Under the pieces are notes generated by a model that searched no databases, had not been told where the DNA came from, and saw nothing but the letters and a program-made list of their open reading frames with translations. Positions 869-62,500 of a stretch of 64,000 nucleotides of DNA are shown piece by piece; the stretch's first letter is position 1, and each line of letters begins with the position of its first letter. The translations under genes and the position numbers were made by a program. Source of the DNA: an uncultured Anaerolineales bacterium (GTDB lineage: Bacteria > Chloroflexota > Anaerolineae > Anaerolineales > UBA11858); assembly GCA_964406305.1 (NCBI GenBank), contig CAYORF010000003.1:1583-65582 (forward strand). The letters are read 5' to 3'.

Positions 869-1278
869 TTCCCAGGTCAGCTTATAAGCCGCATTCTGTC
901 TGACGTATATCTGGTTTACACCCCGGAGGGCTTCTTCCCTTTAATACACTGAGGTGATCATCTGTCTGGGGCGCACTTCTCAGCGCGCCTCGGTGCAGCC
1001 TACCTGGAATTCAAAGGAGACGAGCAGCCTCCCCTCCCGAAGGAGATCATCCCTGTTTGGCCTTGCTCCTGATGGGGGTTGCCCGGCTGCAGGCATTACT
1101 GCCTGCACCGGTGGTCTCTTACACCACCATTTCACCCTTACTCCCGGAGGAGCGGTTTGTTTCTGTGGCCCGATCCGGCAGATCTCTCCGCCCCGGACGT
1201 TATCCGGCATCACGCTCGATGGAGTGCGGACTTTCCTCACCCCCCGAGGGGGGCGCAACCACCTGGCTGACCTGGGGA
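869..1278 (-). ncRNA. rnpB: RNase P RNA, bacterial type A
   Basis: The reverse strand carries the universal RNase P motifs GAGGAAAGUCCGCACUCC (rc of 1221-1238), ACAGAAACAAACCGC, AAGGGUGAAAUGGUGGUGUAAGAG (rc of 1116-1140) and ACAGAAUGCGGCUUAUAAG (rc of about 881-899). The 5' CCCAGGUCAGC (rc 1266-1276) pairs with the 3' GCUGACCUGGG (rc 871-881) to form P1. End coordinates are accurate to a few nt. Confidence 0.9.
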
Positions 1279-3900: not shown

Positions 3901-5187
3901 ATGCCGAAATTAGAGTGGTCTTCAAAATCCGAAAAGCTGAAATCTGGCGGCGGTCTGGTCACTGAGTCCATTTTATATCCTGGACCAGAGGGAAAAGTCC
4001 CAGCCAACGCAGAAAACAGGTTGATCCTGGGAGATAATCTGCGGGTGATGAACGCCTTAATGGGGGAGTATGAAGGTAAGCTAGATCTTATTTATGTAGA
4101 TCCCCCTTTCTTTACGAACAAAGGTTACACTGCCCGGGTTGGACGAGGTGAAGATTCACGCAAACCGGAAGAATGGCAGCTGGCTGAGGGTTATGCGGAC
4201 CGATGGAAAGACCTAGATTCCTATCTGGATATGCTTTATCCCAGGCTGAAATTAATGCACCGCTTGTTGGCGCCAACGGGATCGCTCTACTTGCATCTTG
4301 ATTGGCATGCTAATTCCTATGCCAGGGTTCTGCTGGACGAGATCTTCGGCTATGAAAATTTCCGCAATGAGATCATCTGGACCTACCACGGTCCCTCACC
4401 TATCCGGACCGCATTTAATCGCAAACATGACACAATCCTGTTTTATACCAAAACAGACGATTATGTCTTTAACGTTGATGACGTTCGGATTCCCTATGCC
4501 TCTAATACCATAGAGACATTTAAGTCATCCAAAAAAGCTGGATTTGGTAAGGTGCCTGATCTAGAAAGAGGTAAAGTCCCTGAGGATTGGTGGTATTTTC
4601 CAGTGGTCGCCAGGCTGCATCAGGAAAGGACAGGATACCCAACCCAGAAACCGGAACGGCTGCTGGAAAGGATCATCCTGGCTTCGACCAACCCCGGTGG
4701 ATTAGTGGCAGATTTCTTCGGGGGATCGGGAACTACTGGTACTGTTGCAAATAGGCTGAACCGCCGCTTTATATTATCTGACCTGCAAAGTAGAGCGGTA
4801 ATCACTTCCCGGTCCAGGCTGGCGCTGAAAAACCGGGAATTAGGTGAAAATAGGGCGGGGAAGGAAAATTTCCTTTTACCGGTTTTTCTGCAGCGGGAAG
4901 AGGAGCGGAAAGAAGTTCCGGTGAAAAATCTGGAAGAAATGGGTTTCCCTGGAATCTGTATAGAAGATGGGATCATTCAGCTCCCACCTGAATTGATTTC
5001 TAATGTGGAATATTGGGAAGTAGATCCAGATTGGCAGGGAGAGATCTTCCACAGCCGCTATCAGGCTGTCAGGCCCTTGCGCAAGGGTGATTTGCCGTCC
5101 TCATTGATCTTGCCTGAAACGGGGGGAAAGGTTTGTGTACGGATTGTTCTGGTCAGTGGTGAGCAGATACAACAGGTTATTAATTAA
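3901..5187 (+). CDS. Beta-class N6-adenine/N4-cytosine DNA methyltransferase (N4/N6 MTase family) with a C-terminal extension of about 130 aa
   Basis: Catalytic motif IV DPPF (IYVDPPFFTN) precedes the AdoMet motif I FFGGSGTTG. That is the circularly permuted beta-class order. No endonuclease-like neighbour is present. Confidence 0.85.
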   Translation: MPKLEWSSKSEKLKSGGGLVTESILYPGPEGKVPANAENRLILGDNLRVMNALMGEYEGKLDLIYVDPPFFTNKGYTARVGRGEDSRKPEEWQLAEGYADRWKDLDSYLDMLYPRLKLMHRLLAPTGSLYLHLDWHANSYARVLLDEIFGYENFRNEIIWTYHGPSPIRTAFNRKHDTILFYTKTDDYVFNVDDVRIPYASNTIETFKSSKKAGFGKVPDLERGKVPEDWWYFPVVARLHQERTGYPTQKPERLLERIILASTNPGGLVADFFGGSGTTGTVANRLNRRFILSDLQSRAVITSRSRLALKNRELGENRAGKENFLLPVFLQREEERKEVPVKNLEEMGFPGICIEDGIIQLPPELISNVEYWEVDPDWQGEIFHSRYQAVRPLRKGDLPSSLILPETGGKVCVRIVLVSGEQIQQVIN

Positions 5188-8306: not shown

Positions 8307-9116
8307 CTAATCTTTTTTCAGGATATTTTCTAACTCTTTCAGATCGACCCGTGATGTGAGATCCAGGCTGAGAGGTGTTACAGATACGGCCTTTTTATTG
8401 ATCACAGTGTGGGAATCTGTTCCAGGGGGGGATTTATCAAAATCTGGAGCAATATCGTAGCCGATGCCATTTACACCTTCATCGGCATTTTCTTCCGGTG
8501 GAACCGGCTGGTAAAAACGTTTAGTGGATAAGCGAGTTGTTTGCCAGGGTGTTTCTGGAGTCGCGTCACTAGGGACTTCGATTTTCAGTACCTGAACATC
8601 CGGAGGCATTTCCTTTGACAATAAAGGCTCTGAAAAGAGTTTTGTGAAATACCCTGCAGTCTTAAAATCGATCTCTCTTGAATAGGATGCGTGATATTTC
8701 TTTTCAGTTTCCAGGGAGATTGCCAGGGAAGGAATACCTGCTGCGGCGCCTTCGAGGGTTGCTCCGACCGTTCCAGAGATTGTAACTCCAGTACCGACAT
8801 TCAAACCATAGTTGATACCTGATACGATCAGGTCTGGTTTGCCGGGGATCAAAGTGAAAATACCGTACAAAACTGCCATGGCGGGTGTGCCGTTCACGGC
8901 ATGGACTGTCCATTCTTTCCCATTCACTACCAGCTTTTCTTCTGTGATCTTGCCATCATAATAACTGGGAAAACTCCGGCCGGTACCTGATGATTGTTCA
9001 CGGGGCGCGATCACTGTCACAAATCCAAGTTCATCCAGGGCTTCAGCTGCAGCCCATAATCCGGGGCTTTGAATGCCGTCGTCATTGGTTAACAGAATCC
9101 GAGGTTCTTTTTTCAT
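8307..9116 (-). CDS. surE: 5'/3'-nucleotidase SurE
   Basis: It has the hallmark SurE N-terminus RILLTNDDGIQSPGL and SGINYGLN. Confidence 0.9.
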   Translation of the reverse strand: MKKEPRILLTNDDGIQSPGLWAAAEALDELGFVTVIAPREQSSGTGRSFPSYYDGKITEEKLVVNGKEWTVHAVNGTPAMAVLYGIFTLIPGKPDLIVSGINYGLNVGTGVTISGTVGATLEGAAAGIPSLAISLETEKKYHASYSREIDFKTAGYFTKLFSEPLLSKEMPPDVQVLKIEVPSDATPETPWQTTRLSTKRFYQPVPPEENADEGVNGIGYDIAPDFDKSPPGTDSHTVINKKAVSVTPLSLDLTSRVDLKELENILKKD

Positions 9117-9136
9117 GGGTTCTTTTTCTTACTTAA

Positions 9137-9160
9137 AAAGAGCGGGGTTATCCGCTCTTT
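9137..9160 (-). terminator. Intrinsic terminator downstream of the tRNA cluster
   Basis: On the minus strand, AAAGAGCGG-AUAACC-CCGCUCUUU is followed by UUAAG. It sits between tRNA-Arg and the surE start. Confidence 0.6.
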
Positions 9161-9166
9161 AATTTC

Positions 9167-9242
9167 TGGCACCCTCGGCGTGATTCGAACACGCGACCCC
9201 TTACTCCGCAAGCAAGTGCTCTATCCACTGAGCTACGAGGGC
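9167..9242 (-). tRNA. tRNA-Arg (anticodon GCG), CCA encoded
   Basis: Reverse strand: GCCCUCG-UA-GCUC-AGUGGAUA-GAGC-A-CUUGC-UUGCGGA-GUAAG-GGGUC-GCGUG-UUCGAAU-CACGC-CGAGGGU-G-CCA. The cloverleaf is complete and the anticodon loop is U33-GCG-G37. Confidence 0.85.
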
Positions 9243-9251
9243 ATATTTTTC

Positions 9252-9343
9252 TGGCGGGGAGGGTGGGATTCGAACCCACGATCGAGCTTTCACCCGACAA
9301 CCGCTTAGCAGGCGGCCCCAATCAACCACTCTGGCACCTCCCC
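9252..9343 (-). tRNA. tRNA-Ser (anticodon GCU), class II with long variable arm, CCA encoded
   Basis: Reverse strand: acceptor GGGGAGG/CCUCCCC, anticodon stem-loop GCCGC-CUGCUAA-GCGGU, long variable arm, T arm GUGGG-UUCGAAU-CCCAC. Confidence 0.9.
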
Positions 9344-9359
9344 GGAGTAGACTTGTGAA

Positions 9360-9447
<88 letters not shown>

Positions 9448-9474
9448 CTATTTAAAGGTTCTCCGAGCGGAGAG

Positions 9475-9503
9475 ATTTTACCATAGCTGATTAAGTGAGG
9501 CAA
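9475..9503 (-). promoter_or_regulatory. Candidate promoter for the tRNA-Ser/Ser/Arg cluster
   Basis: On the minus strand, TTGCCT (9503-9498), a 17-nt spacer, then TGgTAAAAT with -10 at 9480-9475. It lies about 30 nt upstream of tRNA-Ser(UGA). Confidence 0.5.
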
Positions 9504-9524
9504 TGCAAAAGCCCTTCATTCCCC

Positions 9525-9553
9525 TTGACTGAACCATTCCTGCACGCTACAAT
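9525..9553 (+). promoter_or_regulatory. Near-consensus sigma-70-type promoter upstream of ffh
   Basis: TTGACT (9525-9530), a 17-nt spacer, then TACAAT (9548-9553). Confidence 0.55.
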
Positions 9554-9561
9554 GCTTGTCC

Positions 9562-9604
9562 GCGGATGGCTCATTTATTGAGTCTATCATCCGCTGTTTT
9601 TTTT
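9562..9604 (+). terminator. Terminator-like hairpin plus U8 tract in the ffh leader
   Basis: GCGGAUG (9562-9568) pairs with CAUCCGC (9588-9594), with an inner CUCA/UGAG extension. T8 follows at 9597-9604 and a second T8 run follows that. The structure ends 25 nt before the ffh ATG. Confidence 0.55.
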
Positions 9605-9629
9605 GTATTTTTTTTAGTAACACACGTTT

Positions 9630-10949
9630 ATGTTTGAGCAGCTGACTAACCGCCTGGATGAAATATTCCATAACCTGCGTCGCCGAGGAAAACTCTCTGA
9701 AAAAGACGTAGATAGCGCAATGCGTGAGATCCGCCTGGCCTTGCTGGATGCGGATGTTCATTATGGCGTGGTCCGGGAATTCGTATCCCGGGTGAAAGAA
9801 AGAGCGGTTGGGCAGGAGGTTTCCAAAGCGCTCAATCCTGGACAGCAAGTTGTCAAGATTGTCCACGAGGAATTGATCGCGATCCTGGGAGAACCAGCAC
9901 CTCTCAATCAATCACCTACCTCCCCCCTGGTGATTTTACTGGCTGGTTTACAAGGATCTGGAAAAACCACTGCGGCCGGAAAACTCGGACGGTTGTTAAA
10001 AAAACGTGGAGAACAGGTATTGCTTGTTGCGGCCGATCCCTACCGGCCAGCAGCCGTTGATCAACTTCAGACCCTAGGAAAGGAATTATCCATTCCGGTT
10101 CTGTCAGATCTGAGCCTGCAGCCCGCTCAATTGGCGCAAAAAGCGCTCCAGGAGGCGGATAAAGCAAGAAGCACAGTGATCATCCTGGACACGGCTGGAC
10201 GATCCCAAATTGATAAAAGCTTGATGGATGAGCTCGAGTCAATTCAGGAGACAGCCAATCCGAATGAGATCCTGTTAGTTGTAGATGCTATGGTCGGACA
10301 GGAAGCGGTTAATATTGCCCAGGGATTCAGCGATGCAGTCCCTATCACCGGTTTGATCATGAGCAAAATGGATGGTGACGCCCGTGGCGGCTCTGCCATC
10401 TCGATCCGTTCAGTGACAGGTGTGCCAATTAAGTTTCTAGGAACCGGAGAGAGCCTGGATGCCCTGGAAAGCTACGACCCCTCTCGATTGGCATCCCGAA
10501 TTCTGGGTATGGGAGATGTGATCGGTCTAATTGAGCGAGCAGAGGAAAGTATCGATCTGGAAACTGCTCAACATCAGACCGAAAGATTATTATCCGGGGA
10601 ATTTACCCTGGAAGACTTTTCCAACCAGATATCCCAGGTTTTGAAGATGGGACCGATCGGAAAGATCTTGGGCATGCTGCCAGGTGAATTTGGTAAAATG
10701 TCCCAATCGATTGACCCCGGGGAGGCGGAGAAGCGGGTAAAAGCTACTCAGGCGATCATTTATTCTATGACACCTGCGGAAAGACAGAACCCGAAAATCC
10801 TGAATGCCCGCCGGAGAAAACGCATCGCAGCTGGATCTGGTACCCAGGTTTATGATGTAAATCAACTGGTTAAACAGTATCAGAATGCAAAAAGAATGTT
10901 CAAAGATCTTAAGAAATCCGGGTTAAAGAATCTACCTCGATTTTCTTAA
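9630..10949 (+). CDS. ffh: Signal recognition particle protein Ffh
   Basis: Canonical N-terminus MFEQLTNRLDEIF, SRP GTPase P-loop GLQGSGKTTAAGKL, DTAGR, and a Met-rich M domain. Confidence 0.95.
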   Translation: MFEQLTNRLDEIFHNLRRRGKLSEKDVDSAMREIRLALLDADVHYGVVREFVSRVKERAVGQEVSKALNPGQQVVKIVHEELIAILGEPAPLNQSPTSPLVILLAGLQGSGKTTAAGKLGRLLKKRGEQVLLVAADPYRPAAVDQLQTLGKELSIPVLSDLSLQPAQLAQKALQEADKARSTVIILDTAGRSQIDKSLMDELESIQETANPNEILLVVDAMVGQEAVNIAQGFSDAVPITGLIMSKMDGDARGGSAISIRSVTGVPIKFLGTGESLDALESYDPSRLASRILGMGDVIGLIERAEESIDLETAQHQTERLLSGEFTLEDFSNQISQVLKMGPIGKILGMLPGEFGKMSQSIDPGEAEKRVKATQAIIYSMTPAERQNPKILNARRRKRIAAGSGTQVYDVNQLVKQYQNAKRMFKDLKKSGLKNLPRFS

Positions 10950-11035
10950 CATTACGAGATTTTAATGTATAATAGTCTCCGCTGTGTCAAGTGCACAGTG
11001 GAATAAAGCTGGAGAAAATTTAAGGAGTACAAGTT

Positions 11036-11896
11036 ATGGTTCGAATTAGATTACGCCGTGCTGGTGGAAAAGGTCAGCCTACACATCGTCTTGTGGCCGC
11101 TGATAGAGAAAGCCCCCGGGATGGCCGATTCATAGAAATTCTGGGAGATTACAACCCCAGGACCGAGCCCGCTACTATTCGGGTTAAAGAAGATCGAATT
11201 TATCATTGGCTGAGTGTTGGTGCCCAGCCTTCAGATTCTGTGCTGCAGATCTTTCGCACTATCGGTTTACTGGAACGCTACGAGCGTTTCAAAGATGGCG
11301 AGGATGTTGAGACACTGATGGCTGAAGGCAAACAGATCGAAAGCGATCGTAATCAGGATACCCGCACACGCAGGGATGATCTGATCGCAGCCAGACAACC
11401 GAAGAAAAAAGAAGAACCGGTTGAAGAAAAACCAGAAGAGGTCCAGGCTGAAGAAACCACTGCTGAAGTAGAGGAAGTGGAAGAAGCCCCCGTGGAAGAA
11501 GCCGCTGCAGAAGAACCTGCTGCTGAAGTAGAGGTAGTGGAAGAAACCGTTGCAGAGGTCGTGGAAGCTGATCCTGAACCCGAGCTAGAACCGGAACCTG
11601 AGCCAGAGCCGGAACCCGAGCCAGAACCCGAGCCAGAACCAGAGCCAGAAACCGAGCCAGAGCCAGAGACGGAACCCGAGCCAGAGCAAGAACCTGAGCC
11701 GGAACCAGAGCCTGAGCCAGAGCCGGAACTGGAAACTGAGCCAGAACCAGAACCGGAATCAGCAAAAGAGATCAAGATCACTGACGCTGCCCGGAAAATC
11801 GCTGAAGACGCCGGAATTGATATTTCAACTGTCAAGGGAACCGGAAAAGACGGTGCAATCCTAAAGTCTGATATCACCAAGTTAATCAAGGATTAA
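11036..11896 (+). CDS. rpsP: 30S ribosomal protein S16 with a long acidic/(PE)n linker and a C-terminal peripheral-subunit-binding-like domain
   Basis: Residues 1 to about 86 are canonical S16 ([41 protein letters not shown]). About 150 aa of an E/A/V/P-rich segment follow, including PEPEPE repeats. The C-terminus [37 protein letters not shown] matches the E3_binding/PSBD consensus of 2-oxoacid dehydrogenase E2 subunits. Confidence 0.9.
11570..11758 (+). repeat. In-frame hexanucleotide (GAR-CCN)n repeat encoding (Glu-Pro)n inside rpsP
   Basis: GAACCNGAGCCA-type units are repeated about 30 times with occasional ACG/CTG/CAA interruptions. The mirrored antisense ORFs 11289-11765 and 11353-11889 (SGSGSG...) are artefacts of this repeat. 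Confidence 0.85.
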
Positions 11897-11945
11897 CTGG
11901 TGTACAGGAATAAGATTCCTTCAGATTTGTTTGCGGAGGAAAACA

Positions 11946-12182
11946 TTGATTGATCTAATCACCTATATTGCGCGTTCACTTGTTGAAGATCCTACACAGG
12001 TGAAGGTCTCACATCAACGGCATAGAGACAGCATTAATTTCCAGCTGGAAGTTGCTCGAGAAGACATGGGACGAGTCATTGGCAAAAATGGTAGAGTAGC
12101 TAACGCTATCAGAACATTGCTGAATGTGCCAGCCTCAGGAATTGGTAAAAAAGTGAATCTGGATATTGTAGAACCACAATGA
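11946..12182 (+). CDS. KH-domain RNA-binding protein (YlqC/UPF0109 family)
   Basis: LIDLITYIARSLVEDPTQVKV...VIGKNGRVANAIRTLL contains the GxxG KH motif. Its position between rpsP and rimM is conserved in many bacteria. I prefer the TTG at 11946 (GGAGG at 11935-11939) over the track start at 11931. Confidence 0.8.
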   Translation: MIDLITYIARSLVEDPTQVKVSHQRHRDSINFQLEVAREDMGRVIGKNGRVANAIRTLLNVPASGIGKKVNLDIVEPQ

Positions 12183-12736
12183 AATCAGATCAGAAGTCAA
12201 ATACTAGCACAGGTTCGTCCTCTTCGGATGAACCTGTGTTTGTCCTTATAGGGAAGTTTCGACGTCCGCATGGCATCAGGGGAGAGATCCGTATGACAGT
12301 GTTGACTGATTACCCGGAGTTGATCTCGCCAGGACAGGTTATCTATGCGGGGAAAAAATATAAGGCCTATACTGTCAGGGATATACGCTGGCATGGGGGA
12401 GATATGCTGGTATCCCTCAAGGAATTACCGGACCGGACAGCTGTTGAAATCTTCCGTAACATTATGGTATATATGAGAAGTGAGGATATGCCGGAATTGC
12501 CGGAAGGGGAGTATTTTATCCATCAGCTGGTTGGCATGGAAGTCATCACTGATCAAGGTGAAAAGCTGGGGATATTAAAAGAAATCCTCATTACCGGTGC
12601 GAATGATGTTTACCTGGTGGAATCGCCGGAGGGTAAGGATTTACTGCTCCCGGTAATTGAAGAAGTTGTTCTAGATATAAACCATGAAAGCTGTCAAATA
12701 CTGGTCCATATCATTCCGGGATTATTGGATTATTAG
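12179..12736 (+). CDS. rimM: 16S rRNA processing protein RimM
   Basis: GKFRRPHGIRGEIRMTVLTDYPE (RimM N-domain) followed by a PRC-barrel C-domain. It overlaps the KH gene stop by 4 nt. Confidence 0.9.
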   Translation: MKSDQKSNTSTGSSSSDEPVFVLIGKFRRPHGIRGEIRMTVLTDYPELISPGQVIYAGKKYKAYTVRDIRWHGGDMLVSLKELPDRTAVEIFRNIMVYMRSEDMPELPEGEYFIHQLVGMEVITDQGEKLGILKEILITGANDVYLVESPEGKDLLLPVIEEVVLDINHESCQILVHIIPGLLDY

Positions 12737-36421: not shown

Positions 36422-39400
36422 ATGGATATAAATACAAAATCTGACCTGAAGCGCTGGCTGACCGCAGTTCTGTTGATCCTTTTACTGTCAGCCGGGGCAT
36501 ACTTGCGTTTTGTTGGCCTCGACTGGGATGTTGAACAACATTTACATCCAGACGAACGGTTCTTAACCATGGTGGAATCCAGTTTAATTCCCGTGGACTC
36601 CGTATCTGGTTATTTTGATTCTTCCCAGTCAACCCTAAATCCAAATAACCAGGGACACAGTTTCTTTGTCTACGGCACACTGCCCATATTTATGGTCAGG
36701 TATATGGCGGAACTGGTAGGCTCGAGTGGATACGGCAGCGTATACCTGGTCGGCCGGGCAATGTCCGCGGTCATGGATTTATTGTCGGTAGTGCTGGTGT
36801 TTTTTATTGGTACCCGTCTTTATAACCGGCGAGTAGGGATCCTTGGAGCTGCTTTTTCCGCTTTTGCGGTCCTCCAAATACAACAATCCCATTTCTTTAC
36901 GGTCGATACATTTACGACTTTTTTCACCCTGCTGGCAGTATATTTTGCGGTTGAAGTGATCACCGGGAAAAAAGAGCGGGTTGATTTGATATTTTACCTG
37001 TTGTTTGGTGTAGCCTTGGGAATGGCGGTTGCCTCTAAGATCAATGCTGCCCCTGTTGCCATCACCCTGCCAATAGCAGCAGTGGTTTACTGGCTAGGGC
37101 TGGACGATGAGAAAAAAGAAAAGCAGGGTCCCAAGATCTTCTTTTTCCTTATTCTGGCAGCATTAACCAGTTTGGTTACATTCCGGATTTGTCAACCCTA
37201 TGCTTTTAATGGACCTGGCTTCTTTAATGTGGGTTTGAATGAAACTTGGGTTTCGGGGATGAGATCACTCCATGCTCAAACCTCTGGAGATGTTGATTAC
37301 CCGCCAGCACTGCAGTGGGCCAGGCGTCCGATCTGGTTCTCCCTCCAGAATATGGTGATCTGGGGTCTGGGTATTCCATTAGGCTTGTTGGGCTGGTCCG
37401 GATTTGCCTGGATGGGATGGAAGATCTTTACCAAGCGAGCCTGGAAACCCCACCTGGTATTGTGGACCTGGACAGGGTTGTATTTCGTTTGGCAATCCAG
37501 GCAGTGGAACAGCACCATGCGTTACCAGCTTCCTATCTACCCTTTGCTGGCAGTTTTTGCAGCCTGGATCCTGATAGAGGCCTGGGATACTCTCAAAGAA
37601 GGAAAGTTTAAGATAGGCGGCAAGGGCCTGTCACAAGGCTTGATGAAGTCACTTATCATAGCCATCGGGGTATTTTCCCTGTTATTCACTGCGGGTTGGG
37701 CGTTTGCCTTTTCCCGAATATACACTGATCCTCAGCCCCGAGTGGCTGCAACGCGCTGGATCTTTGAGAATATACCCGGCGCAGCCACATTGATAGTGGA
37801 GGATGAGGGTGAAAGCCATCAACAGTTACTTTCTTACCCTACAGGATTGATCATTCAGGGCGATTCCGGTTGGCTGGCCAGTTTCGATTCCAAGTTTGAT
37901 GGCCAAGTAACCTCCCTGTCTTTCCCGCATATCATAAACCAAAACCCTTCGGTCTCGCCGCTGACCATCAAGATCATGCTAAACGATTCATCCGGCCAGA
38001 CCCTGTCAGAAGAAACAGGTATATTCACCTCCGAGGAAGGTTCTTCTTCAGGATCAATAACCTTTACTGATCCAGTTTCGGTCATTGCCGGTGAAGTGTA
38101 TCAACTCTGGGTGACTGTCTTGGACCCGGCTGGAGCGATCAGTATCCAGGGAACCGGAATTGCTAATGAGAGTTCCTGGGATGACGGAATTCCCCTTCGG
38201 ATGGAAGGATATGATCCCTTTGGAGGAATCTATCGGGGAGGTCTGAATTTTGAATTGTACTGGGATGACAATCCAGAAAAACTGGATCGGTTTCTTTCCA
38301 CTCTGAACCAGTCGGACTACATAATGATCACTTCCAGCCGGCAGTGGGCTACAACCACCCGGGTTCCAGAAAGATATCCGCTGACATCCGAGTATTACCG
38401 CCAACTTATGGGGTGTCCGGTTGATATCAGTATTGAAAATTGTTATAACCAAGCCCGACCTGGTGATTTCGAGGGATTCCTGGGATTCGAGCTGATCGAA
38501 ACATTCCAAAATAACCCCACTATTGGGCTGATCGAGATCAATGACCAGCCCGCAGAGGAAGCCTTTACTGTATATGACCATCCGAAGGTTTTTATCTTCC
38601 AGAAAACTGATGATTTTTCACTAAGCAGTGCAGCCAAGATCCTGTCTGCAGTGGATTTGAGCAAAGTGATCCATATCACGCCAAAACAAGCTGATAACCA
38701 CCCGGGAAATTTACTGCTGCCGCTTGATCGCCTGGCTGAGCAGCGGGAAGGTGGAACCTGGAGCGATTTCTTTGATTTTGATTCCCTCCAGAATAAATAC
38801 CAGGTCGTAGGGGTGATTATTTGGTATGCAGCTGTATTCCTGATCGGTTTACTGGTATACCCTTTAATGCGGTTGGTTTTACCCGGATTAAGTGATAAAG
38901 GGTATCCCCTGGCCCGCACCTTTGGGCTATTGATCCTGTCTTATCTGGTCTGGCTGACTGGGTCTGCTGGCATTCCTTTCCTGAGAAGCACCATTCTGGG
39001 TGTGTTATTCCTGTTAGCCTGTGCTGGCCTGTATGCGGGTTACCGCCAAAGGGAAGAATTGCTGCAAGAATGGAAGGGAGCCAAGCGCTATTATCTGACC
39101 ATCGAGATCATAGCCCTGGCACTGTTTGTGATCGCAATCTTGATCCGGTACGGAAATCCTGACCTGTGGCATCCCTGGAAAGGCGGCGAAAGGCCGATGG
39201 ATTTCTCTTATTTCAATGCGGTATTAAAGAGTACGACCTTCCCCCCCTATGATCCCTGGTTTGCGGGTGGATATATCAATTATTACTACTACGGATTTGT
39301 GTTTGTTGGCGTTCTGACCAAGCTGCTGGGAATTGTGCCCTCATTTGCCTATAATCTGATCCTTCCTACGATATTTATGACCCTTGGCTTAGGAGCTTTT

Positions 39401-41236
39401 TCTCTGGCCTGGAACCTATTAGATGGAAACACCACTGAGCACAAACTCCATGACTCGCCTTATCTTGCCGGCGGCTCGGGTGTTTTAGGCCTGGCAATTT
39501 TTGGTAATCTGGGAGTGATCCAGATGGTGTTTAGAGGGTTGCAGCGGCTGGCATCCGCAGGAATGAATGTTGTTGATGGTAATATTTTCCAGCGGTTTAA
39601 ATGGACCCTGCTGGGGTTTGTCCAGCTTTTTTATACACCAACGCTACATTACAGGTTGGATGAATGGTATTGGAATCCCAGCCGGGTGATTGGTGGTGAA
39701 CATGGCGGACCGATCACAGAATTCCCCTTTTTCACCTTCCTTTACGGGGATCCCCACGCCCACTTTATATCTCTTCCACTGACTGTTTTAGCATTTGCCT
39801 GGATGTTGTCGATCATTAAATCAACCCGCCAAAAGGGAATTAACAAATATAGTTTTGGGAACTTGATCGGGGTAACTTTGTTTGGCGGATTAGCTGTTGG
39901 GGTTCTGCGCCCGACAAATACATGGGATTTTTATCCCTACCTGGCCCTGGGAGCTGCTGCACTGATCTATGCTTGGTGGCAGGAAAGTAAAGAGCAAGGA
40001 TATAACTGGGTCCAACCTGCGCTGCGATTGCTGCTGTTCCTTGGTTTTGCTTTTATCACTTTTCAGCCTTATGCAAACTGGTATGGAGAAGGATATACCA
40101 GTATCAAACCCTGGTTCGGGACCCATACACCGCTGGGTGAGTATTTCACTCATTGGGGATTCTTCCTATTGATCCTGGTCAGTTGGATGTTTGCGGAAAC
40201 TGTGGATTGGATGGCAAAAACGCCTGTATCAGCGTTAAGGGAATTAAAAAAATATAGGGAGCTGATCATAGCCGGCCTCCTGATAATGATAGTGATCATA
40301 GTCAGCTTTGGAGTCACACTCGAGAATGATTTTACTCTGGGTGGTTTCACTCTCGTCGGTGGTGGGGTTCATATCATATGGTTCGTCCTTCCAGTCATGG
40401 CTTGGGCACTGGTATTGATATTCCGGCCAGGGCAAACCCTCATGAAAGGAACTGTTTTATTCCTGATTGGTACCAGCTTGGCGATCACCCTCATGGTTGA
40501 ACTGGTGTATGTGGAAGGGGACATCGGCCGGATGAACACAGTGTTTAAGTTCTACCTGCAGGCCTGGACCTTTATGGCCGTCAGCGCCGCTGCAGCTCTC
40601 TGCTGGCTGATACCCATGGCAAAAGACTGGAAATCACCCTTCCGGATCACCTGGCGCGTTCTATTTTTGATCTTGCTGTCGGGTGCTGCACTCTATCCAA
40701 TTTTGGGAAGTGTGGCTAAAATCAAAGACCGGATGGTGATAGACGCCCCCCATACTTTGGACGGCATGGAGTTTATGAGGTATGCAACCTATCACGATCT
40801 GGATACGGCCATGGATCTATCCCAGGATTATGAAGCGATCCGTTGGGTTCAGGACAATATTCAGGGTTCCCCCGTTATTGTGGAAGCCAATCAGGTTGAA
40901 TACCACTGGGCCACAAGGTACACTGTATATACTGGGCTGCCGGGTGTTGTGGGGTGGAATTGGCACCAACGTCAACAGCGGACCCTAACACCCCATGACT
41001 GGATCTTTTCCAGGGTGGAGGACGTGAACATCTTTTATGATACAGCTGATTTGACAGCTGCCAGGGATTTCCTTGAGAAGTATCATGTCAGCTATATTAT
41101 TGTTGGCCAACTGGAGCGCGCCAAATATCTTCCAGAAGGTATAAATAAATTTGAACAAGGCCTTGGCACCCTCTGGCAGGTAGTTTATCAGAGCCAGGAC
41201 ACTACTATATATCAAACGATCTCAGTAGCTGATTAG
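36422..41236 (+). CDS. Giant (1604 aa) polytopic fusion protein: N-terminal PMT/ArnT-like GT-C module, soluble middle region, C-terminal DUF2298 ('Chlor_Arch_YYY') module
   Basis: The N-terminal first loop is RFVGLDWDVEQHLHPDERFLTMV (DE dipeptide). About 300 aa of non-hydrophobic sequence lie mid-protein. The C-terminal half carries DPWFAGGYINYYYYGFVF (nt 39281-39292 encode YYYY), EFPFFTFLYGDPHAH and FKFYLQAW. Confidence 0.7.
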   Translation: MDINTKSDLKRWLTAVLLILLLSAGAYLRFVGLDWDVEQHLHPDERFLTMVESSLIPVDSVSGYFDSSQSTLNPNNQGHSFFVYGTLPIFMVRYMAELVGSSGYGSVYLVGRAMSAVMDLLSVVLVFFIGTRLYNRRVGILGAAFSAFAVLQIQQSHFFTVDTFTTFFTLLAVYFAVEVITGKKERVDLIFYLLFGVALGMAVASKINAAPVAITLPIAAVVYWLGLDDEKKEKQGPKIFFFLILAALTSLVTFRICQPYAFNGPGFFNVGLNETWVSGMRSLHAQTSGDVDYPPALQWARRPIWFSLQNMVIWGLGIPLGLLGWSGFAWMGWKIFTKRAWKPHLVLWTWTGLYFVWQSRQWNSTMRYQLPIYPLLAVFAAWILIEAWDTLKEGKFKIGGKGLSQGLMKSLIIAIGVFSLLFTAGWAFAFSRIYTDPQPRVAATRWIFENIPGAATLIVEDEGESHQQLLSYPTGLIIQGDSGWLASFDSKFDGQVTSLSFPHIINQNPSVSPLTIKIMLNDSSGQTLSEETGIFTSEEGSSSGSITFTDPVSVIAGEVYQLWVTVLDPAGAISIQGTGIANESSWDDGIPLRMEGYDPFGGIYRGGLNFELYWDDNPEKLDRFLSTLNQSDYIMITSSRQWATTTRVPERYPLTSEYYRQLMGCPVDISIENCYNQARPGDFEGFLGFELIETFQNNPTIGLIEINDQPAEEAFTVYDHPKVFIFQKTDDFSLSSAAKILSAVDLSKVIHITPKQADNHPGNLLLPLDRLAEQREGGTWSDFFDFDSLQNKYQVVGVIIWYAAVFLIGLLVYPLMRLVLPGLSDKGYPLARTFGLLILSYLVWLTGSAGIPFLRSTILGVLFLLACAGLYAGYRQREELLQEWKGAKRYYLTIEIIALALFVIAILIRYGNPDLWHPWKGGERPMDFSYFNAVLKSTTFPPYDPWFAGGYINYYYYGFVFVGVLTKLLGIVPSFAYNLILPTIFMTLGLGAFSLAWNLLDGNTTEHKLHDSPYLAGGSGVLGLAIFGNLGVIQMVFRGLQRLASAGMNVVDGNIFQRFKWTLLGFVQLFYTPTLHYRLDEWYWNPSRVIGGEHGGPITEFPFFTFLYGDPHAHFISLPLTVLAFAWMLSIIKSTRQKGINKYSFGNLIGVTLFGGLAVGVLRPTNTWDFYPYLALGAAALIYAWWQESKEQGYNWVQPALRLLLFLGFAFITFQPYANWYGEGYTSIKPWFGTHTPLGEYFTHWGFFLLILVSWMFAETVDWMAKTPVSALRELKKYRELIIAGLLIMIVIIVSFGVTLENDFTLGGFTLVGGGVHIIWFVLPVMAWALVLIFRPGQTLMKGTVLFLIGTSLAITLMVELVYVEGDIGRMNTVFKFYLQAWTFMAVSAAAALCWLIPMAKDWKSPFRITWRVLFLILLSGAALYPILGSVAKIKDRMVIDAPHTLDGMEFMRYATYHDLDTAMDLSQDYEAIRWVQDNIQGSPVIVEANQVEYHWATRYTVYTGLPGVVGWNWHQRQQRTLTPHDWIFSRVEDVNIFYDTADLTAARDFLEKYHVSYIIVGQLERAKYLPEGINKFEQGLGTLWQVVYQSQDTTIYQTISVAD

Positions 41237-46976: not shown

Positions 46977-49900
46977 ATGAACCATGCTATAATCGAGTAT
47001 GGATTTCAACTAGCTTCGATCGATACAATCCGGGAAATAATGCCCTTCATTCTTACCCTATTTAATGCCCCTGCATATATGATCTGGCCCTCAAACAGGC
47101 TGGGTATTTTAGCATTGATAGTGATGGTGGCAGGACTAGTGTACGGAAATTGGCATTGGCGCGGCTACCAACGGGAAATGAAAGAACAGCAGTGGTTCCT
47201 GTTCGGTATATTATTGACCCTGGCTCCAATCACAGCTCTTATACTGGGAGTCCGCTTGCCGGAATGGGGGTCAATACCACTGCCAAATATGTCTCTGGAA
47301 CCAACTGGCGGCGCCATGATGATCCTGGCTGCAGTCCCAGTGCTGATTGCCGGCTGGGTCCTGGGTCCAACCAGCGCCTCGGTGGTTGGATTGATTTCTG
47401 GAATTTGCCTGGCTTATTGGGATACCCATTCGCCTTTTACAGTCATTGAGTTTACTTTTTTTGCAATGCTGGTATCTGTTGCCATCCGCCAGCGTTATCG
47501 TACCGCTATATTCAGCATCTTAAGACGGCCGTTTCTGGCCAGCTTGTTAATTGCTGTCGTTCATTCCCTCGTCAATATAACGGGAGCTTTTTTCTGGGCA
47601 TCTGGGTCTATTGTCGAAAATCTTGACTTTGCAATCTCAAATGCTCAAACAGGGGTGGTGGCCGTGGCGGCCAGTTTTGCCATAGCAGGTTTGGTCATGG
47701 AATTTGTCTTAGTGGCTTTTCCCCGTGCGGATGGGATCAAATCAAAATTAAAACCTTCTCCATCTGAAAGCAGTATAAAAATCCGCTTCCTCCAGTATGT
47801 GATCTCATTAACTCTAGTATTGGTCCTGGTCCTTTTGCTTGTTAACTGGTTTGTGGCCGGGAAATCAGCGGAGAAGATGGTCCAATCCCAACTGGAGAAT
47901 ATCGCCAGGACAACCACAAATAAGATTCCATTTTTTTTCAATACAGGACAGAGTCTGATCAGTCAGTATGCCTCGGATCTCTCCGGAGATTTTGCCGCCC
48001 CAGAGGATCTAGACGAAGTACTTCGCAAAAGCTTCCGGGCCATTCCTTTTTTCTCCCAATTTTTTATTTTTGATGTCAACACTGAATTGGTAAGTGCTTA
48101 TCCTGATCAGTCGATCGAGAACCAGACCTTCCCTCCTGAATTCCAGGTTGGACTGGGATCGGCATTGAATGGTGTGCCCGTTCAGGTTTATGTCTCACCT
48201 CCTTCTGATATCGGGAATAAAACAATAATAACCTTTATGGGGAGCATTTCTGAACCTGAGGGAGAGACCTCCGGCGTGCTGGTGGGATTGGTTGACCTGG
48301 AATCGAATCCATTCACGCAGCCCATTCTTAGTGATCTAAAAGGTATAAACGAGCTGGGTGGAGTAGGGTATTTACTGGATGAACAGGGCCGGGTATTGTA
48401 CTCGTCAGAGGAAAATCTTTTTGGGGTCTTCTTCCCGAGTTTTGATCTGCGCTATGAAGAAGTGTTTTCAAAACAGACTACTGCGAACGGCATTCGCCAA
48501 CTGGTGTATATCAGATCGGCGCTTGGGCGGCCTTGGACGGTGATGCTCACCATACCGGCAGTTAATGCCCAACAGTTGGCCCTTGATCTAGCAGCGCCTT
48601 TGTCTGGCGTTGTGCTTTTGATAGCTTTGATCACAATGGCTGTGATGTATTTTGGGTTGAGCTCAGTGGCTGGATCGCTCCATGTATTGACAGAAGAAGC
48701 TGACCGGATAACAAAAGGTGAATTGGACCATCCCTTGCGGATGACACCGCGCGTGGATGAGGTTGGACAACTGAGGCGGGCATTTGAAAAGATGCGCCGG
48801 AGTCTAAAGAACCGTATGGTTGAGCTCAATCGTTTGCTTACGGTCAGCCAGGGAGTGGCATCTTCTCTGGAGATGGGAGATGCTGTAGAAACGATTCTGT
48901 CCTCGGCTCTCGAAATTGGGGCTAGTTCAGCCCGGATCGTACTGGATGCGGATGTCCTTCCGGAAGGATTATTAGAAGGCGCTGAAATGACCAGCATCGG
49001 ACAAGGAGAAGATACCGAGGCTTTTGCATATCTCGATCCCCAGATCCTGGAATTAGCCCGGAATAGATCCCCAGTGATGTTATCCAATCCCGCCCGCATG
49101 CCGCTTTTAGACCTTGAGGACGATGATCCTGTTCCGGGAGCGATCCTGATCGTTGCCCTTCAACACGAACAGGGATATTATGGCGCCATTTGGTTGGCGT
49201 ATCTTGAGCCACACACATTTATTGACAGCGAAGTTCGCTATATCGTTACCTTGGCCGGACAGGCTGCTCTGGCAGCTACGAATGCATCTCTGTTTGGAAG
49301 AGCCGAGATTGGCAGAAAACGGATGGCTGCAATTATTGCGTCCACCCCTGACCCAATTATGGTACTTGACCATCAGGATAAACTGCTTCTGACGAACCCG
49401 GTTGCTGCTGAGCTGCTCGGGATCGAACATGATTTTGGGATAGGGGAATCCATTGAAAGGATTACGGACCAGCAGGAACTGATTGAGCTGCTGAATGGCG
49501 CTCCGGGCGGAAAATCATCCAAAGAGGTTAAACTGAAAGATGGCCGAATATTCCTGGCGACTGCCTCTCCTGTAATTGCCGGGGAATATCAATTGGGTCG
49601 AGTTTGTGTGCTGAGGGATATTTCCCAGCTGAAGGAAATGGACGAACTGAAATCCGATTTTGTTGCCACTGTCAGCCATGACCTGCGCTCCCCACTGACA
49701 TTGATGCGGGGATACGCCACAATGTTAGAAATGGTGGGTGAACTGAATGACCAGCAGCAGAACTATGTCCATAAGATTATTACCGGCGTAGAGAGCATGT
49801 CTCACCTTGTTCAAAACCTGCTTGATCTGGGAAGGATTGAGGCTGAAGTGGGATTGAAGCTTGATATGATCTCGGCTCCGGATATTGTCTCCGAGGTAGC

Positions 49901-62416: not shown

Positions 62417-62500
62417 GCCGAAGTGGCGGAACAGGCAGACGCGCTACGTTCAGAGCGTAGTGGGATTACTCCCATGTGGGTTCGACTCCCACCTTCGGCA
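62417..62500 (+). tRNA. tRNA-Leu (anticodon CAG), class II, CCA not encoded
   Basis: GCCGAAG-UG-GCGGAACAGGCAGACGC-G-CUACG-UUCAGAG-CGUAG, a long variable arm, then GUGGG-UUCGACU-CCCAC-CUUCGGC-A. ORF 62281-62511 (minus) on this locus is rejected. Confidence 0.9.

Follow-up and report, generated by a model that had tools for sequence, protein, structure and literature searches.

The window (the whole 64-kb stretch of DNA that was analysed) contains an rpsP gene whose product joins the small-subunit ribosomal protein bS16 to a peripheral-subunit-binding domain (PSBD). The features of the locus are collected in Table 1. The fusion gene lies in the conserved context surE...ffh-rpsP-khpA-rimM-dprA, within which the canonical bS16 gene order ffh-rpsP-khpA/ylqC-rimM is present, and khpA is also the next gene downstream of the S16-PSBD fragment P0173. 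The fusion gene is the housekeeping rpsP of an Anaerolineales bacterium. A sigma-70-type site between ffh and rpsP is suggestive of a promoter for the latter; it is a consensus match only, with one such site found against 1.6 expected from shuffled sequences.

Table 1. Features of the rpsP locus, in positions of the window.
Feature	Position	Strand	Basis and remarks
ffh (SRP54), upstream neighbour of rpsP	9630..10949	+	ORF; SRP54 family Pfam matches on the syntenic genes of locus L043
Sigma-70-type promoter-like site TTAACA-16-TATAAT	10946..10973	+	11/12 consensus matches; after the ffh stop codon, upstream of rpsP
Shine-Dalgarno sequence AAGGAG	11022..11027	+	8 nt 5' of the rpsP ATG; read from the sequence
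rpsP CDS, 286-aa bS16-PSBD fusion	11036..11896 (including stop codon)	+	ATG start; same architecture in at least 64 clusters
Canonical bS16 core, aa 1-88	11036..11299	+	Pfam Ribosomal_S16, TIGR00002, full-length alignment with B. subtilis bS16
Anaerolineae-specific helical extension, aa 89-125	11300..11410	+	AlphaFold2, conservation
Disordered polyanionic spacer, aa 126-246	11411..11773	+	AlphaFold2 pLDDT <50; composition
(X-Glu)31 repeat, aa 180-241	11573..11758	+	26/31 dipeptides Pro-Glu; imperfect 18/24-nt tandem array
PSBD-fold domain, aa 247-286	11774..11893	+	Pfam E3_binding, PDB sequence matches, Foldseek
khpA-like KH-domain gene, downstream neighbour of rpsP	11931..12182	+	ORF; Pfam KH_KhpA-B on the syntenic L043 gene
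rimM, downstream neighbour of rpsP	12179..12736	+	ORF; Pfam RimM on the syntenic L043 gene

Domain architecture of the fusion protein

The protein consists of four parts, namely an S16 core, a helical extension, an acidic spacer and a C-terminal PSBD, and this architecture was confirmed by the analyses described below. The core matched the Pfam HMM Ribosomal_S16 (PF00886) with 74.1 bits (cutoff 27) and TIGR00002 with 88.7 bits (cutoff 45.3), and its residues 2-88 pair with the same residue numbers in full-length bS16 of B. subtilis (E = 4e-24). The first-pass annotation of this DNA had described the first 86 residues or so as a normal S16, and this was borne out. When compared by Foldseek with bS16 of solved ribosomes, the core gave target-normalised TM scores of 0.85-0.88 at an rmsd of about 1.7 Å, and its pN/pS across 12 species is 0.11. 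The Foldseek search with the full-length model returned matches to bS16 only, and a separate AlphaFold2 model of the tail was therefore needed for the PSBD.

Between the core and the acidic region sits the helical extension, a segment that had been overlooked in the first-pass annotation. AlphaFold2 places helices at residues 91-106 and 109-120 (pLDDT 80-96), and G88, E89, L94, E97, D108, T111 and R113 are invariant in this region. The same extension is present in the 108-119-aa S16 proteins of Anaerolinea, Flexilinea and Pelolinea, and it has no sequence counterpart in the solved bS16 structures.

The spacer that follows contains 55 Glu, 1 Asp and 2 Lys residues and has a net charge of -54. 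It begins with the acidic Glu/Ala/Val-rich segment that had already been recognised from the sequence (aa 126-178, net charge -22) and continues into the repeat, for which "about 30 PE dipeptides" had been counted; this number is roughly right for X-Glu dipeptides, of which there are 31, but just 26 of them are Pro-Glu. The imperfect tandem array underlying the repeat was placed by TRF at 11576-11758, and the match of the repeat to the EP-repeat family Trypan_PARP in Pfam is weak (21.6 bits against a cutoff of 100). Across the 12 species, the spacer varies between 84 and 134 aa in length and between -40 and -60 in net charge, its sequence identity is 0.52 as compared to 0.50 in shuffled controls, and its Pro content ranges from 2 to 32%. 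The comparison shows charge and length, and not sequence, to be what selection apparently keeps in the spacer. Given this range of Pro content and an identity equal to that of the shuffled controls, the (PE)n repeat is just a local variant of the spacer.

The terminal 40-aa block is present exactly as quoted in the first-pass annotation, and its proposed fit to the E3_binding consensus was upheld by HMM search. The Pfam E3_binding model (PF02817, gathering cutoff 23.7) matched the whole protein with 43.1 bits and the isolated tail with 47.7 bits (E = 1.8e-12), and the tail matched solved PSBDs in sequence at E values of about 3e-6. The tail-only AlphaFold2 model (pLDDT 83) was used to search the PDB with Foldseek, and the top 35 matches were all PSBDs (TM 0.7-0.85, rmsd 1.0-1.3 Å); the predicted model has the two helices, the loop with a 3-10 turn and the length of about 35-40 residues that define the PSBD fold. 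Profile, sequence and fold thus agree on a genuine PSBD fold for the domain that the acidic, partly (Pro-Glu)n spacer links to bS16, as had been proposed.

The conservation of this domain was then compared among 66 tails and across the 12 species. In the GTGxxGxI...D motif of the loop and helix 2, all 66 tails have G, G, K, G, I, L, K, S, D and I without exception, and 64 of them have T. Surface positions occupied by K, K, E, D, K, D, K, S, D and K are also invariant across the 66 members, a pattern that fits a specific binding surface. The tail has an amino acid identity of 78% and a pN/pS of 0.20 across the 12 species, as compared to a pN/pS of 0.33 for the helical extension, and by these measures it is under purifying selection; a domain of 40 residues may also be kept for its folding stability alone. 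Identities and pN/pS were used instead of classical dN/dS because synonymous sites are near saturation (pS 0.6-0.76), and the tail alignment for pN/pS was anchored on the GTG motif. The net charge of the PSBD is +1, directly after a spacer of -54.

Distribution and apparent origin of the fusion

PF00886 and PF02817 were found together in at least 64 protein clusters (90% identity), with PF02817 precomputed on all 64 family members, and the in-frame fusion was found in 12 complete GTDB species representatives. The carriers are all uncultured MAGs, and no cultured carrier of S16-PSBD was found in the cluster look-ups. These data bear directly on the possibility, raised in the first-pass annotation, that a frameshift or an assembly error in the repeat has created the fusion, and on the further possibility of a mis-called ORF joining rpsP to an unrelated downstream gene. 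The repeat does upset assemblies elsewhere, as seen from an N-gap with a frame break in locus L011 and a frameshift in locus L009, but in both cases the artefact breaks the fusion and an intact PSBD is still encoded downstream. The rpsP sequence in the window is continuous and in frame, and S16 and PSBD share one frame in 12 species representatives as well as in at least 64 independent clusters; these come from different assemblers and samples, and their spacers differ in both length and sequence. Since the repeat breaks the fusion in L009 and L011 rather than making it, and at least 64 clusters are in frame, the fusion withstood this check and the artefact reading was rejected, with a remaining probability that is close to negligible.

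A survey of S16 lengths and domains across Chloroflexota, which had also been suggested, resulted in three forms of the protein: core plus extension (108-119 aa), the same with an acidic tail (170-230 aa), and the same with a PSBD in addition (235-319 aa). The fusion appears to have arisen stepwise in this order, with the extension on the core followed by the acidic tail and then by the PSBD. In the tree, one clade has 75 tips, of which 64 are proteins with a PSBD, and interspersed among them are L014 (221 aa) and P0068-P0075, which are Chloroflexota S16 proteins with the helical extension and a long acidic tail but without a PSBD. It follows from these related proteins that the spacer belongs to S16 itself and predates the PSBD, and from their position in the same clade that some lineages can do without the PSBD. 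The main function may rest on the acidic tail alone.

A non-E2 PSBD subfamily shared with bL21

The fusion protein does not qualify as an E2 component of a 2-oxoacid dehydrogenase, as no Biotin_lipoyl or 2-oxoacid_dh Pfam match was obtained and the E2 equivalog models scored 16-43 bits against cutoffs of 378-722. Within the 64-kb window, no E1, E2 or E3 gene was found, nor was a second PSBD, an E2 catalytic domain (DHRxxDG) or an E3 redox motif. The S16 tails also depart from the Ser/Thr-Pro helix-1 N-cap that is typical of E2-embedded PSBDs: the cap residue is D in 41 tails, A in 17, N in 3, P in 3 and E in 2, whereas in the E2 PSBD units it is Pro in 76 of 84 and Asp in 0 of 84, this Pro-versus-Asp difference being an empirical discriminator from the present analysis and not a curated family definition. 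Net charge was also tried as a discriminator and was rejected, since the averages are +0.4 for the S16 tails and +0.5 for similar E2 units.

The closest relatives of the S16 tail are non-E2 tails of the "ITDAA...GTGKDGxILKSD" type, above all those on bL21 of Gemmatimonadota. The mean identity of the S16 tails is 0.61 to bL21 tails and 0.42 to E2-embedded PSBDs, and the consensus sequences of the bL21 and S16 tails are about 73% identical. The first-pass annotation had regarded the architecture as a transplanted E2 linker plus PSBD; this view is supported neither by these identities nor by the acidic spacer, which predates the PSBD and hence was not taken over from E2. The best 120 matches to a bL21-PSBD query all combine L21 with E3_binding and are named Gemmatimonadota or Palauibacterales, and the resulting count of at least 120 clusters is a lower bound. 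The bL21-PSBD gene lies in the rng-rplU-rpmA operon. The two fusions therefore have in common a housekeeping ribosomal protein, a flexible linker, a terminal PSBD of the same type and a canonical operon, and they differ in that the bL21 fusion has a large-subunit host, an Ala/Pro-rich and near-neutral linker (median net charge -2), one to three PSBD units, and a retained R156 (142 of 143 tail units). The PSBD subtype appears to have been recruited onto S16 and bL21 independently in two unrelated phyla.

The same subtype also occurs in tandem arrays and, outside the ribosome, on phasin-like proteins, OsmC, an HNH nuclease and a kinase as hosts. A profile search of a word-indexed database with the non-S16 tails returned only eight stand-alone PSBD mini-proteins of 41-69 aa and was uninformative on hosts. 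The PSBD is thus a more promiscuous adaptor than its name implies, with a non-E2 subfamily that can be recognised by its "TDAA" cap. No description of S16-PSBD or L21-PSBD was found in the searchable literature, in line with the earlier remark that no description of the S16 fusion was known to its author, and a 2012 phylogenomics paper on ribosomal proteins makes no mention of fusions.

Comparison with known systems

Where ribosomal proteins have lineage-specific extensions, these are usually short, basic and packed onto rRNA. Here, a universally conserved ribosomal protein bears a polyanionic tether of about 120 residues and the folded docking domain of a metabolic multienzyme family. The bL12 (L7/L12) stalk and the eukaryotic/archaeal P-stalk consist of a ribosome anchor, a flexible hinge and a distal factor-recruiting domain or tail, and they are analogous to the fusion in their working, as anchor, tether and terminal element raise the local concentration of a partner, without being homologous to it. 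They differ in location and cargo, since bL12 is found at the GTPase-associated centre and recruits translational GTPases, whereas bS16 lies at the solvent side of the 30S body, carrying a docking domain of metabolic complexes. The (Glu-Pro)n/(Lys-Pro)n spacer of TonB and the EP repeats of trypanosome procyclin are Glu-Pro repeat rods, and the alternating Pro-Glu run is likewise expected to be extended, stiff and polyproline-II-like; this likeness is compositional only, and the PE repeat is not kept among the S16-PSBD orthologues.

The PSBD of E2 itself, as in B. stearothermophilus E2p (PDB 1w85, 1ebd, 2pdd), shares with the S16 tail the helix/3-10-turn loop/helix fold, the GTGxxGxI...D motif, about 40% identity, a position at the end of a flexible linker and probably the role of a small docking module. 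In contrast to the E2 domain, which lies between other domains, the S16 PSBD is found at the extreme C-terminus of a ribosomal host that has neither a lipoyl domain nor an acyltransferase core; its helix-1 cap is Thr-Asp rather than Ser-Pro, and it keeps just one of the three classical Arg contacts. Elongation of bS16 past its core of about 82-90 aa is also seen in Actinobacteria (C. acnes, Mycobacterium) and Bacteroidota (F. johnsoniae, P. gingivalis), and solved ribosomes contain long bS16 chains of 147-192 aa. The extension of C. acnes bS16 binds uS4 and bridges body and shoulder, with a distal part that is flexible and invisible (PMC10085706). The sequence comparison revealed no similarity to the long bS16 proteins of solved ribosomes past aa 88-90 of the fusion, and the NCBIfam models for long S16 (PRK14520, PRK14521) scored far below their cutoffs. 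In the examples compared, the actinobacterial and Bacteroidota extensions are not acidic and have no recognisable globular domain, whereas the fusion described here has both an acidic segment and such a domain. MRPS36/KGD4, formerly listed as a mitochondrial ribosomal protein, recruits E3 to the E2 core of eukaryotic OGDH (PMC9974300). It combines a "ribosomal protein" label with E3 recruitment and stands in for a missing PSBD, but it does not have the PSBD fold, is no true component of the ribosome and is not homologous to the fusion, and the likeness is a curiosity only.

Proposed function and alternative explanations

The best explanation of these data, to which we assign a probability of roughly 0.55, is a predicted protein-docking module tethered at the surface of the ribosome. 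The S16 core would anchor the protein in the 30S body, and the helical extension of about 35 residues would lie on the 30S surface in the manner of the actinobacterial bS16 extension that binds uS4. The acidic spacer of about 120 residues would be repelled by rRNA and extend into the cytoplasm as a tether of some tens of nanometres, with the Pro-Glu run as a stiff segment of it, and the PSBD at its end would serve for protein-protein docking, capturing a partner and keeping it near the ribosome. To our knowledge, every known PSBD client is a dimer, and the partner of the ribosomal PSBD would probably be a dimer as well; it is probably also widely conserved. The presence of the same PSBD subtype on the 50S protein bL21 suggests that the attachment point on the ribosome does not matter, and with the attachment point seemingly irrelevant the function would probably be to "tether X to ribosomes" rather than to change a specific ribosomal site. 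The recurrence on bS16 and bL21 argues for a selected function of hooking something to ribosomes. The 40-residue tail could serve as bait for finding ribosome-associated partners in poorly studied but environmentally abundant bacteria.

The identity of this partner is the subject of the first alternative, in which the tail recruits E3 (dihydrolipoamide dehydrogenase) and/or E1 and thereby links ribosomes to components of central metabolism or sequesters these components. No PSBD clients other than E1 and E3 are known from experiments, the best fold matches of the tail include PDB entries 1w85, 1ebd, 3rnm and 2eq7, and the tail resembles the Firmicutes E2p (compared stretch GTGKNGRVLKEDI). The residues R135, R139 and R156 of B. 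stearothermophilus are those which we take to be the basic PSBD residues contacting E1/E3, and they are reportedly the three-Arg "electrozipper" described by Mande in 1996 and by Jung in 2002. The equivalent of R135 is K or R in 65 of 66 S16 tails, but the other two Arg are absent, all 66 tails having E or D at position 139 and A, T, N or G at position 156. We had considered the argument that this loss of the Arg triad means no binding of E1/E3, and it was dropped because genuine E2 PSBD units show the same substitutions, with Glu at 139 in 25 of 84, Ala at 156 in 11 of 84 and the two combined in 7 of 84. E1/E3 binding by the S16 tails is therefore not decisively contradicted by the substitutions. 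The bL21 tails keep R156 almost without exception. The helix-1 N-cap is a further point against it, being Asp, Ala or Asn in S16 tails where E2 units mostly have Pro. E3 or E1 is a possible partner of the S16 tail, and should the tail bind either of them, its residues imply contacts that depart from the canonical pattern; as a whole, we consider this alternative unlikely. Somewhat more doubtful is the broader proposal that the PSBD hooks on bS16 of the Anaerolineales clade and on bL21 of Gemmatimonadota capture E3, E1 or whole 2-oxoacid dehydrogenase complexes. If true, such a hook would tie translation physically to central carbon and redox metabolism or bring the two to one place, or it would store the enzymes on ribosomes as a regulatory reserve.

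In another alternative, the polyanionic tail is itself the functional element. It would be an electrostatic or entropic bristle with which ribosomes are held at a distance from one another, aggregation is prevented or contacts on the solvent side of the 30S subunit are tuned, and the PSBD would be just a compact cap, for instance against proteolysis, that has no specific partner. This would agree with the PSBD-less acidic tails that are widespread and older in Chloroflexota S16, with the PSBD-less members interspersed in the PSBD clade, and with a net charge that is tightly held at -40 to -60 while the sequence drifts freely. Against it, the tail is more constrained than the helical extension (pN/pS 0.20 versus 0.33), with many exposed charged residues invariant, and the same subtype is found in tandem arrays and on other hosts. 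On bL21 it follows near-neutral Ala/Pro linkers, so that selection for the module does not depend on an acidic bristle; we regard the bristle as rather improbable. It is very unlikely that the PSBD docks back on the ribosome, either in cis as a regulatory or assembly latch or in trans as a bridge to dimers, polysome arrays or hibernating assemblies. Judging from its length of about 120 residues, the spacer would allow the PSBD to reach all parts of its own ribosome or of one next to it, the gene neighbours are the 30S assembly factor rimM and khpA, and tails on 30S and 50S proteins could share one ribosomal target, but PSBDs are not known to bind rRNA or ribosomal proteins, the domain is neutral and follows a polyanion, which is expected to be repelled from rRNA, and the subtype also occurs on the non-ribosomal hosts listed above. 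The first-pass annotation had left room for a nucleic acid in place of a protein partner, and a SAP/HeH/Rho_N-like domain tethering mRNA or DNA to the 30S subunit would likewise be a small two-helix domain terminating a flexible tail. The profile check that it had suggested gave no SAP, HeH, LEM or Rho_N Pfam match even at E ≤ 10, HeH/SAP structures are absent from the fold matches, all 35 meaningful ones being PSBDs, and the domain carries a net charge of only +1 after a spacer of -54. Lacking both a profile match and a fold match, the SAP/HeH reading was rejected as extremely improbable; a tethering role, as originally envisaged, is the most sensible interpretation, whereas the tethering of a nucleic acid is unlikely.

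In addition to the PSBD fusions, the Chloroflexota S16 protein P0100 was observed to carry a long charged linker followed by a helix-hairpin-helix domain resembling the C-terminal domain of the RNA polymerase alpha subunit (alpha-CTD). Small adaptor domains may recurrently use the S16 C-terminus as their platform. Automated annotation sometimes gives fragments of the ribosomal PSBD fusion genes the label of E2 components, an example being P0062.

Domain architecture of the S16 fusion

The first-pass annotation had described an ORF in which ribosomal protein S16 continues through an acidic, Pro-Glu-rich segment into a terminal peripheral-subunit-binding domain (PSBD). This ORF is present as described, within the classical cluster order ffh, rpsP, khpA-like, rimM, dprA, and an identical order with Pfam-annotated genes was identified in one relative (L043) on a 1.05-Mb contig. 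In the encoded protein a housekeeping bS16 is followed first by an ordered extension and then by a polyanionic spacer that is disordered; a folded PSBD, itself under constraint, forms the extreme C-terminus. Residues 1–88 matched the Pfam HMM Ribosomal_S16 (PF00886; 74 bits, cutoff 27) and TIGR00002 (88.7 bits, cutoff 45.3), aligned end to end with the 89–90-residue bS16 of B. subtilis, and resembled bS16 in solved ribosomes in fold (TM 0.85–0.88), making this core a complete bS16. The conserved extension (residues 89–125), which the earlier layout had overlooked, was modeled by AlphaFold2 as two confident helices (91–106 and 109–120; pLDDT 80–96). The spacer (residues 126–246) contains 55 Glu, 1 Asp, and 2 Lys for a net charge of −54 and includes a stretch of 62 residues built from X-Glu dipeptides (26 are Pro-Glu), for which the coding DNA is an imperfect tandem array of 18/24 nt.

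Features of the window, with positions in nucleotides unless marked aa
Feature	Position	Strand	Remark
RNase P RNA, bacterial class A	869-1274	-	Rfam RF00010, 255 bits
ORFs, spurious	9148-9398	-	overlap tRNA cluster
Three tRNA genes	9170-9447	-	between surE and ffh
ffh	9630-10949	+	5' of rpsP in cluster
Promoter-like site TTAACA-16-TATAAT	10946-10973	+	near-consensus; just 3' of ffh stop codon
Shine-Dalgarno AAGGAG	8 nt upstream of rpsP ATG	+	seen in sequence
rpsP (bS16-PSBD)	11036..11896	+	ATG start, 286 codons plus stop
Terminal block (PSBD)	aa 247-286	+	very C-terminus; quoted in first-pass annotation
khpA-like KH gene	11931-12182	+	3' of rpsP
rimM	12179-12736	+	after khpA-like gene, then dprA
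Very large ORF	36422-41236	+	1604 aa
Very large ORF	46977-50345	+	1122 aa
Very large ORF	50786-55096	+	1436 aa
Fourth tRNA gene	62417-62500	+	near window end

The last 46 residues alone matched the Pfam HMM E3_binding (PF02817; 47.7 bits, E = 1.8e-12, cutoff 23.7) and no second Pfam family, even at E ≤ 10. The tail also matched solved PSBDs from the E2 chains of Bacillus, Pyrobaculum, and human (E ~3e-6 to 1e-4), and the best 35 PDB fold matches of its AlphaFold2 model (pLDDT 83, run with an alignment of tails) were all PSBDs (1w85_I: TM 0.79/0.85, rmsd 1.3 Å). Profile and fold thus agree in identifying the terminal domain as a PSBD, as had been called from the sequence. Pfam profile search of the protein identified neither the lipoyl nor the catalytic domain of an E2, E2 equivalog models scored more than tenfold below their cutoffs, and the PSBD in the window is not part of an E2.

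Recurrence and evolution of the fusion

Searching 5.8 billion proteins resulted in at least 64 clusters (90% identity; 235–319 aa) containing both PF00886 and PF02817, the named ones being S16 from "Anaerolineales bacterium". Among GTDB species representatives, 12 genes are complete; of three others, one is cut off by a contig end (L007), one is broken by a run of Ns inside the acidic repeat (L011, 6001–7019), and one by a frameshift inside the repeat of a long-read assembly (L009, 6001–6797). Since the PSBD is still encoded downstream in L011 and, intact, in L009, repeat-associated errors break the fusion and do not create it. Between species the spacers are wholly different in sequence, and the reading frame always continues into the PSBD. 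A frameshift or assembly artefact, named in the first-pass annotation as what might undo the fusion, was looked for and is given almost no credence, given this direction of the errors and the number of clusters and complete representatives. Gene callers report the broken genes (L009, L011) as truncated S16, and the label "E2 component" is given to orphaned pieces of the tail, P0062 among them. On the long-read contig of L043, the ffh gene is split into three ORF calls (8592–9917; SRP54_N, SRP54, SRP_SPB), probably owing to assembly frameshifts; the adjoining S16-PSBD gene is intact.

Three forms of S16 were found across Chloroflexota: core plus helical extension in Anaerolineaceae (Anaerolinea, Flexilinea, Pelolinea, Desulfolinea; 108–119 aa), an added acidic disordered tail in many other Anaerolineales and Chloroflexota (160–240 aa in total), and, in one clade, a PSBD on top of the acidic tail. 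In a neighbour-joining tree of residues 1–118, 64 PSBD-bearing proteins fall in one 75-tip clade. The 11 exceptions all carry acidic tails and include the frameshifted L009 (P0066) and a protein annotated as partial (P0065); L014, within the clade, genuinely lacks a PSBD. This pattern fits one PSBD gain and a few losses, which a 118-residue tree cannot prove.

Across 12 species, amino-acid identity and pN/pS were 0.88 and 0.11 for the core, 0.67 and 0.33 for the extension, and 0.78 and 0.20 for the PSBD. Spacer identity was 0.52, versus 0.50 for shuffled spacers; length (84–134 aa) and net charge (−40 to −60) were held while proline ranged from 2% to 32%. What selection maintains in the spacer is great length and strong acidity, and the window's (PE)n run is one local solution. 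Because acidic-tailed S16 without a PSBD is widespread, the spacer belongs to S16 itself and predates the PSBD; it did not arrive together with the PSBD from an E2, contrary to the transplant proposal. Not every S16-PSBD spacer is purely acidic, as a fragment from another lineage (P0173; L044, 37–333, followed by khpA) has a linker in which a Lys-rich, strongly basic segment (KPKVKEAKPKKPTAKKEVKKKK) directly precedes the PSBD.

Relatives of the tail and a parallel on bL21

An exhaustive phmmer search of the tail against 1.84 billion representatives resulted in 995 matches. Among the best 149 representatives other than S16, lipoyl domains are present in 56 and E2 catalytic domains in 53; other hosts include two bL21, two OsmC-like proteins, a Ser/Thr kinase (P0128, three PSBD units), an HNH endonuclease, phasin-like proteins, and many small proteins. 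Leaving aside the S16-PSBD fragments P0140 and P0173 (74–76%), the closest single-unit matches are non-E2 tails (56–64% identity), with the best E2-embedded units at ~45–51%. In these non-E2 units helix 1 is capped by Thr/Ser-Asp/Glu/Asn-Ala-Ala; the cap position is occupied in E2 units by Pro in 76 of 84 and by Asp in none of the 84. Outside E2 complexes the PSBD is a promiscuous adaptor. One family with a conserved helical, weakly phasin-like N-terminal domain (P0121–P0126, P0129–P0131, P0134, P0136, P0160, P0161, P0166, P0179) carries two to four "TDAAR"-type units separated by long (AGQA)n-like Gln/Ala/Gly repeats, and stand-alone mini-proteins of 41–69 aa also occur (P0271–P0278).

A search seeded with one bL21 fusion yielded 120 best clusters (P0147, P0215, P0279–P0396), all of which combine Ribosomal_L21p with E3_binding (185–298 aa); named clusters are from Gemmatimonadota or "Candidatus Palauibacterales". 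The genes sit in a normal rng-rplU-rpmA operon (L041, L042, L046; gene at 4001–4600), and the proteins contain one to three PSBD units, with two or three in 21 of 120. The tail consensus, ITDAARELAEEHGIDLATIEGTGKDGRILKSDVQKAI, belongs to proteins with a large-subunit host and a near-neutral Ala/Pro-rich linker, in contrast to the polyanionic S16 spacer. Mean pairwise identity between bL21 and bS16 tails is 0.61, versus 0.42–0.43 to E2 units, a conservative comparison as the E2 sample was pre-selected for similarity to S16 tails. One PSBD subtype has thus come to sit at the end of flexible linkers on two ribosomal hosts, from the small subunit in one phylum and from the large subunit in the other.

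S16 and the PSBD are each long-established families, and both Pfam accessions are already assigned to S16-PSBD proteins by public pipelines. Full-text search of the open-access literature found no description of S16-PSBD or L21-PSBD fusions, in line with the first-pass annotation, and a 2012 survey of prokaryotic ribosomal proteins makes no mention of fusions. Lineage-specific extensions of ribosomal proteins are a known kind, and what is unusual here is the folded adaptor. That it recurs in two phyla, each time on a different ribosomal protein, points to a function under selection and accessible to experiment.

Possible function of the tail

We favor, at a probability of roughly 55%, a tethered docking module for a candidate partner protein. 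The extension would lie on the 30S surface, similar to the 65-residue extension of C. acnes bS16, which binds uS4 and ties body to shoulder, its distal part being invisible (PMC10085706). The polyanionic spacer would be repelled by rRNA and project outward. Its ~120 residues could span tens of nanometers, with the Pro-Glu run as a stiff part, and the PSBD would dock the partner. Since this PSBD subtype also works when attached to bL21, it seems to matter little where on the ribosome the tether is anchored, and a conserved protein of the cell is the probable partner.

That this partner is E3 or E1 we consider unlikely. Positions in 66 S16 tails were mapped by alignment to R135, R139, and R156 of the B. 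stearothermophilus PSBD, which we take to be the "electrozipper" arginines for E1/E3. R135 is replaced by K or retained as R in 65 tails (Q in one), whereas R139 is E or D and R156 is A, T, N, or G in all 66. In the sample of 84 genuine E2 units, however, Glu occupies 139 in 25 and Ala occupies 156 in 11, with both deviations combined in seven, so the substitutions were dropped as evidence against E1/E3 binding; R156 is kept almost invariably in bL21 tails. Net charge did not separate S16 tails from E2 units, and no E1, E2, or E3 genes were identified within the 64-kb window. Somewhat less probable still is that the acidic bristle does the actual work, with the PSBD as its cap, and docking of the PSBD back onto ribosomes is quite improbable. 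A nucleic-acid-binding tail is more improbable again, as SAP, HeH, and Rho_N matches were absent both from Pfam (E ≤ 10) and from the 35 best folds.

Another Chloroflexota S16 of 305 aa (P0100; L045, 205–1122) has a mixed Lys/Glu/Ala/Pro linker and ends in a helix-hairpin-helix domain resembling the RNA polymerase alpha-CTD (Pfam RNA_pol_A_CTD, 27.7 bits, cutoff 23.8). This single cluster, on a ~1.1-kb contig (1.15 kb), hints that the S16 C-terminus may be a platform for small adaptor domains.
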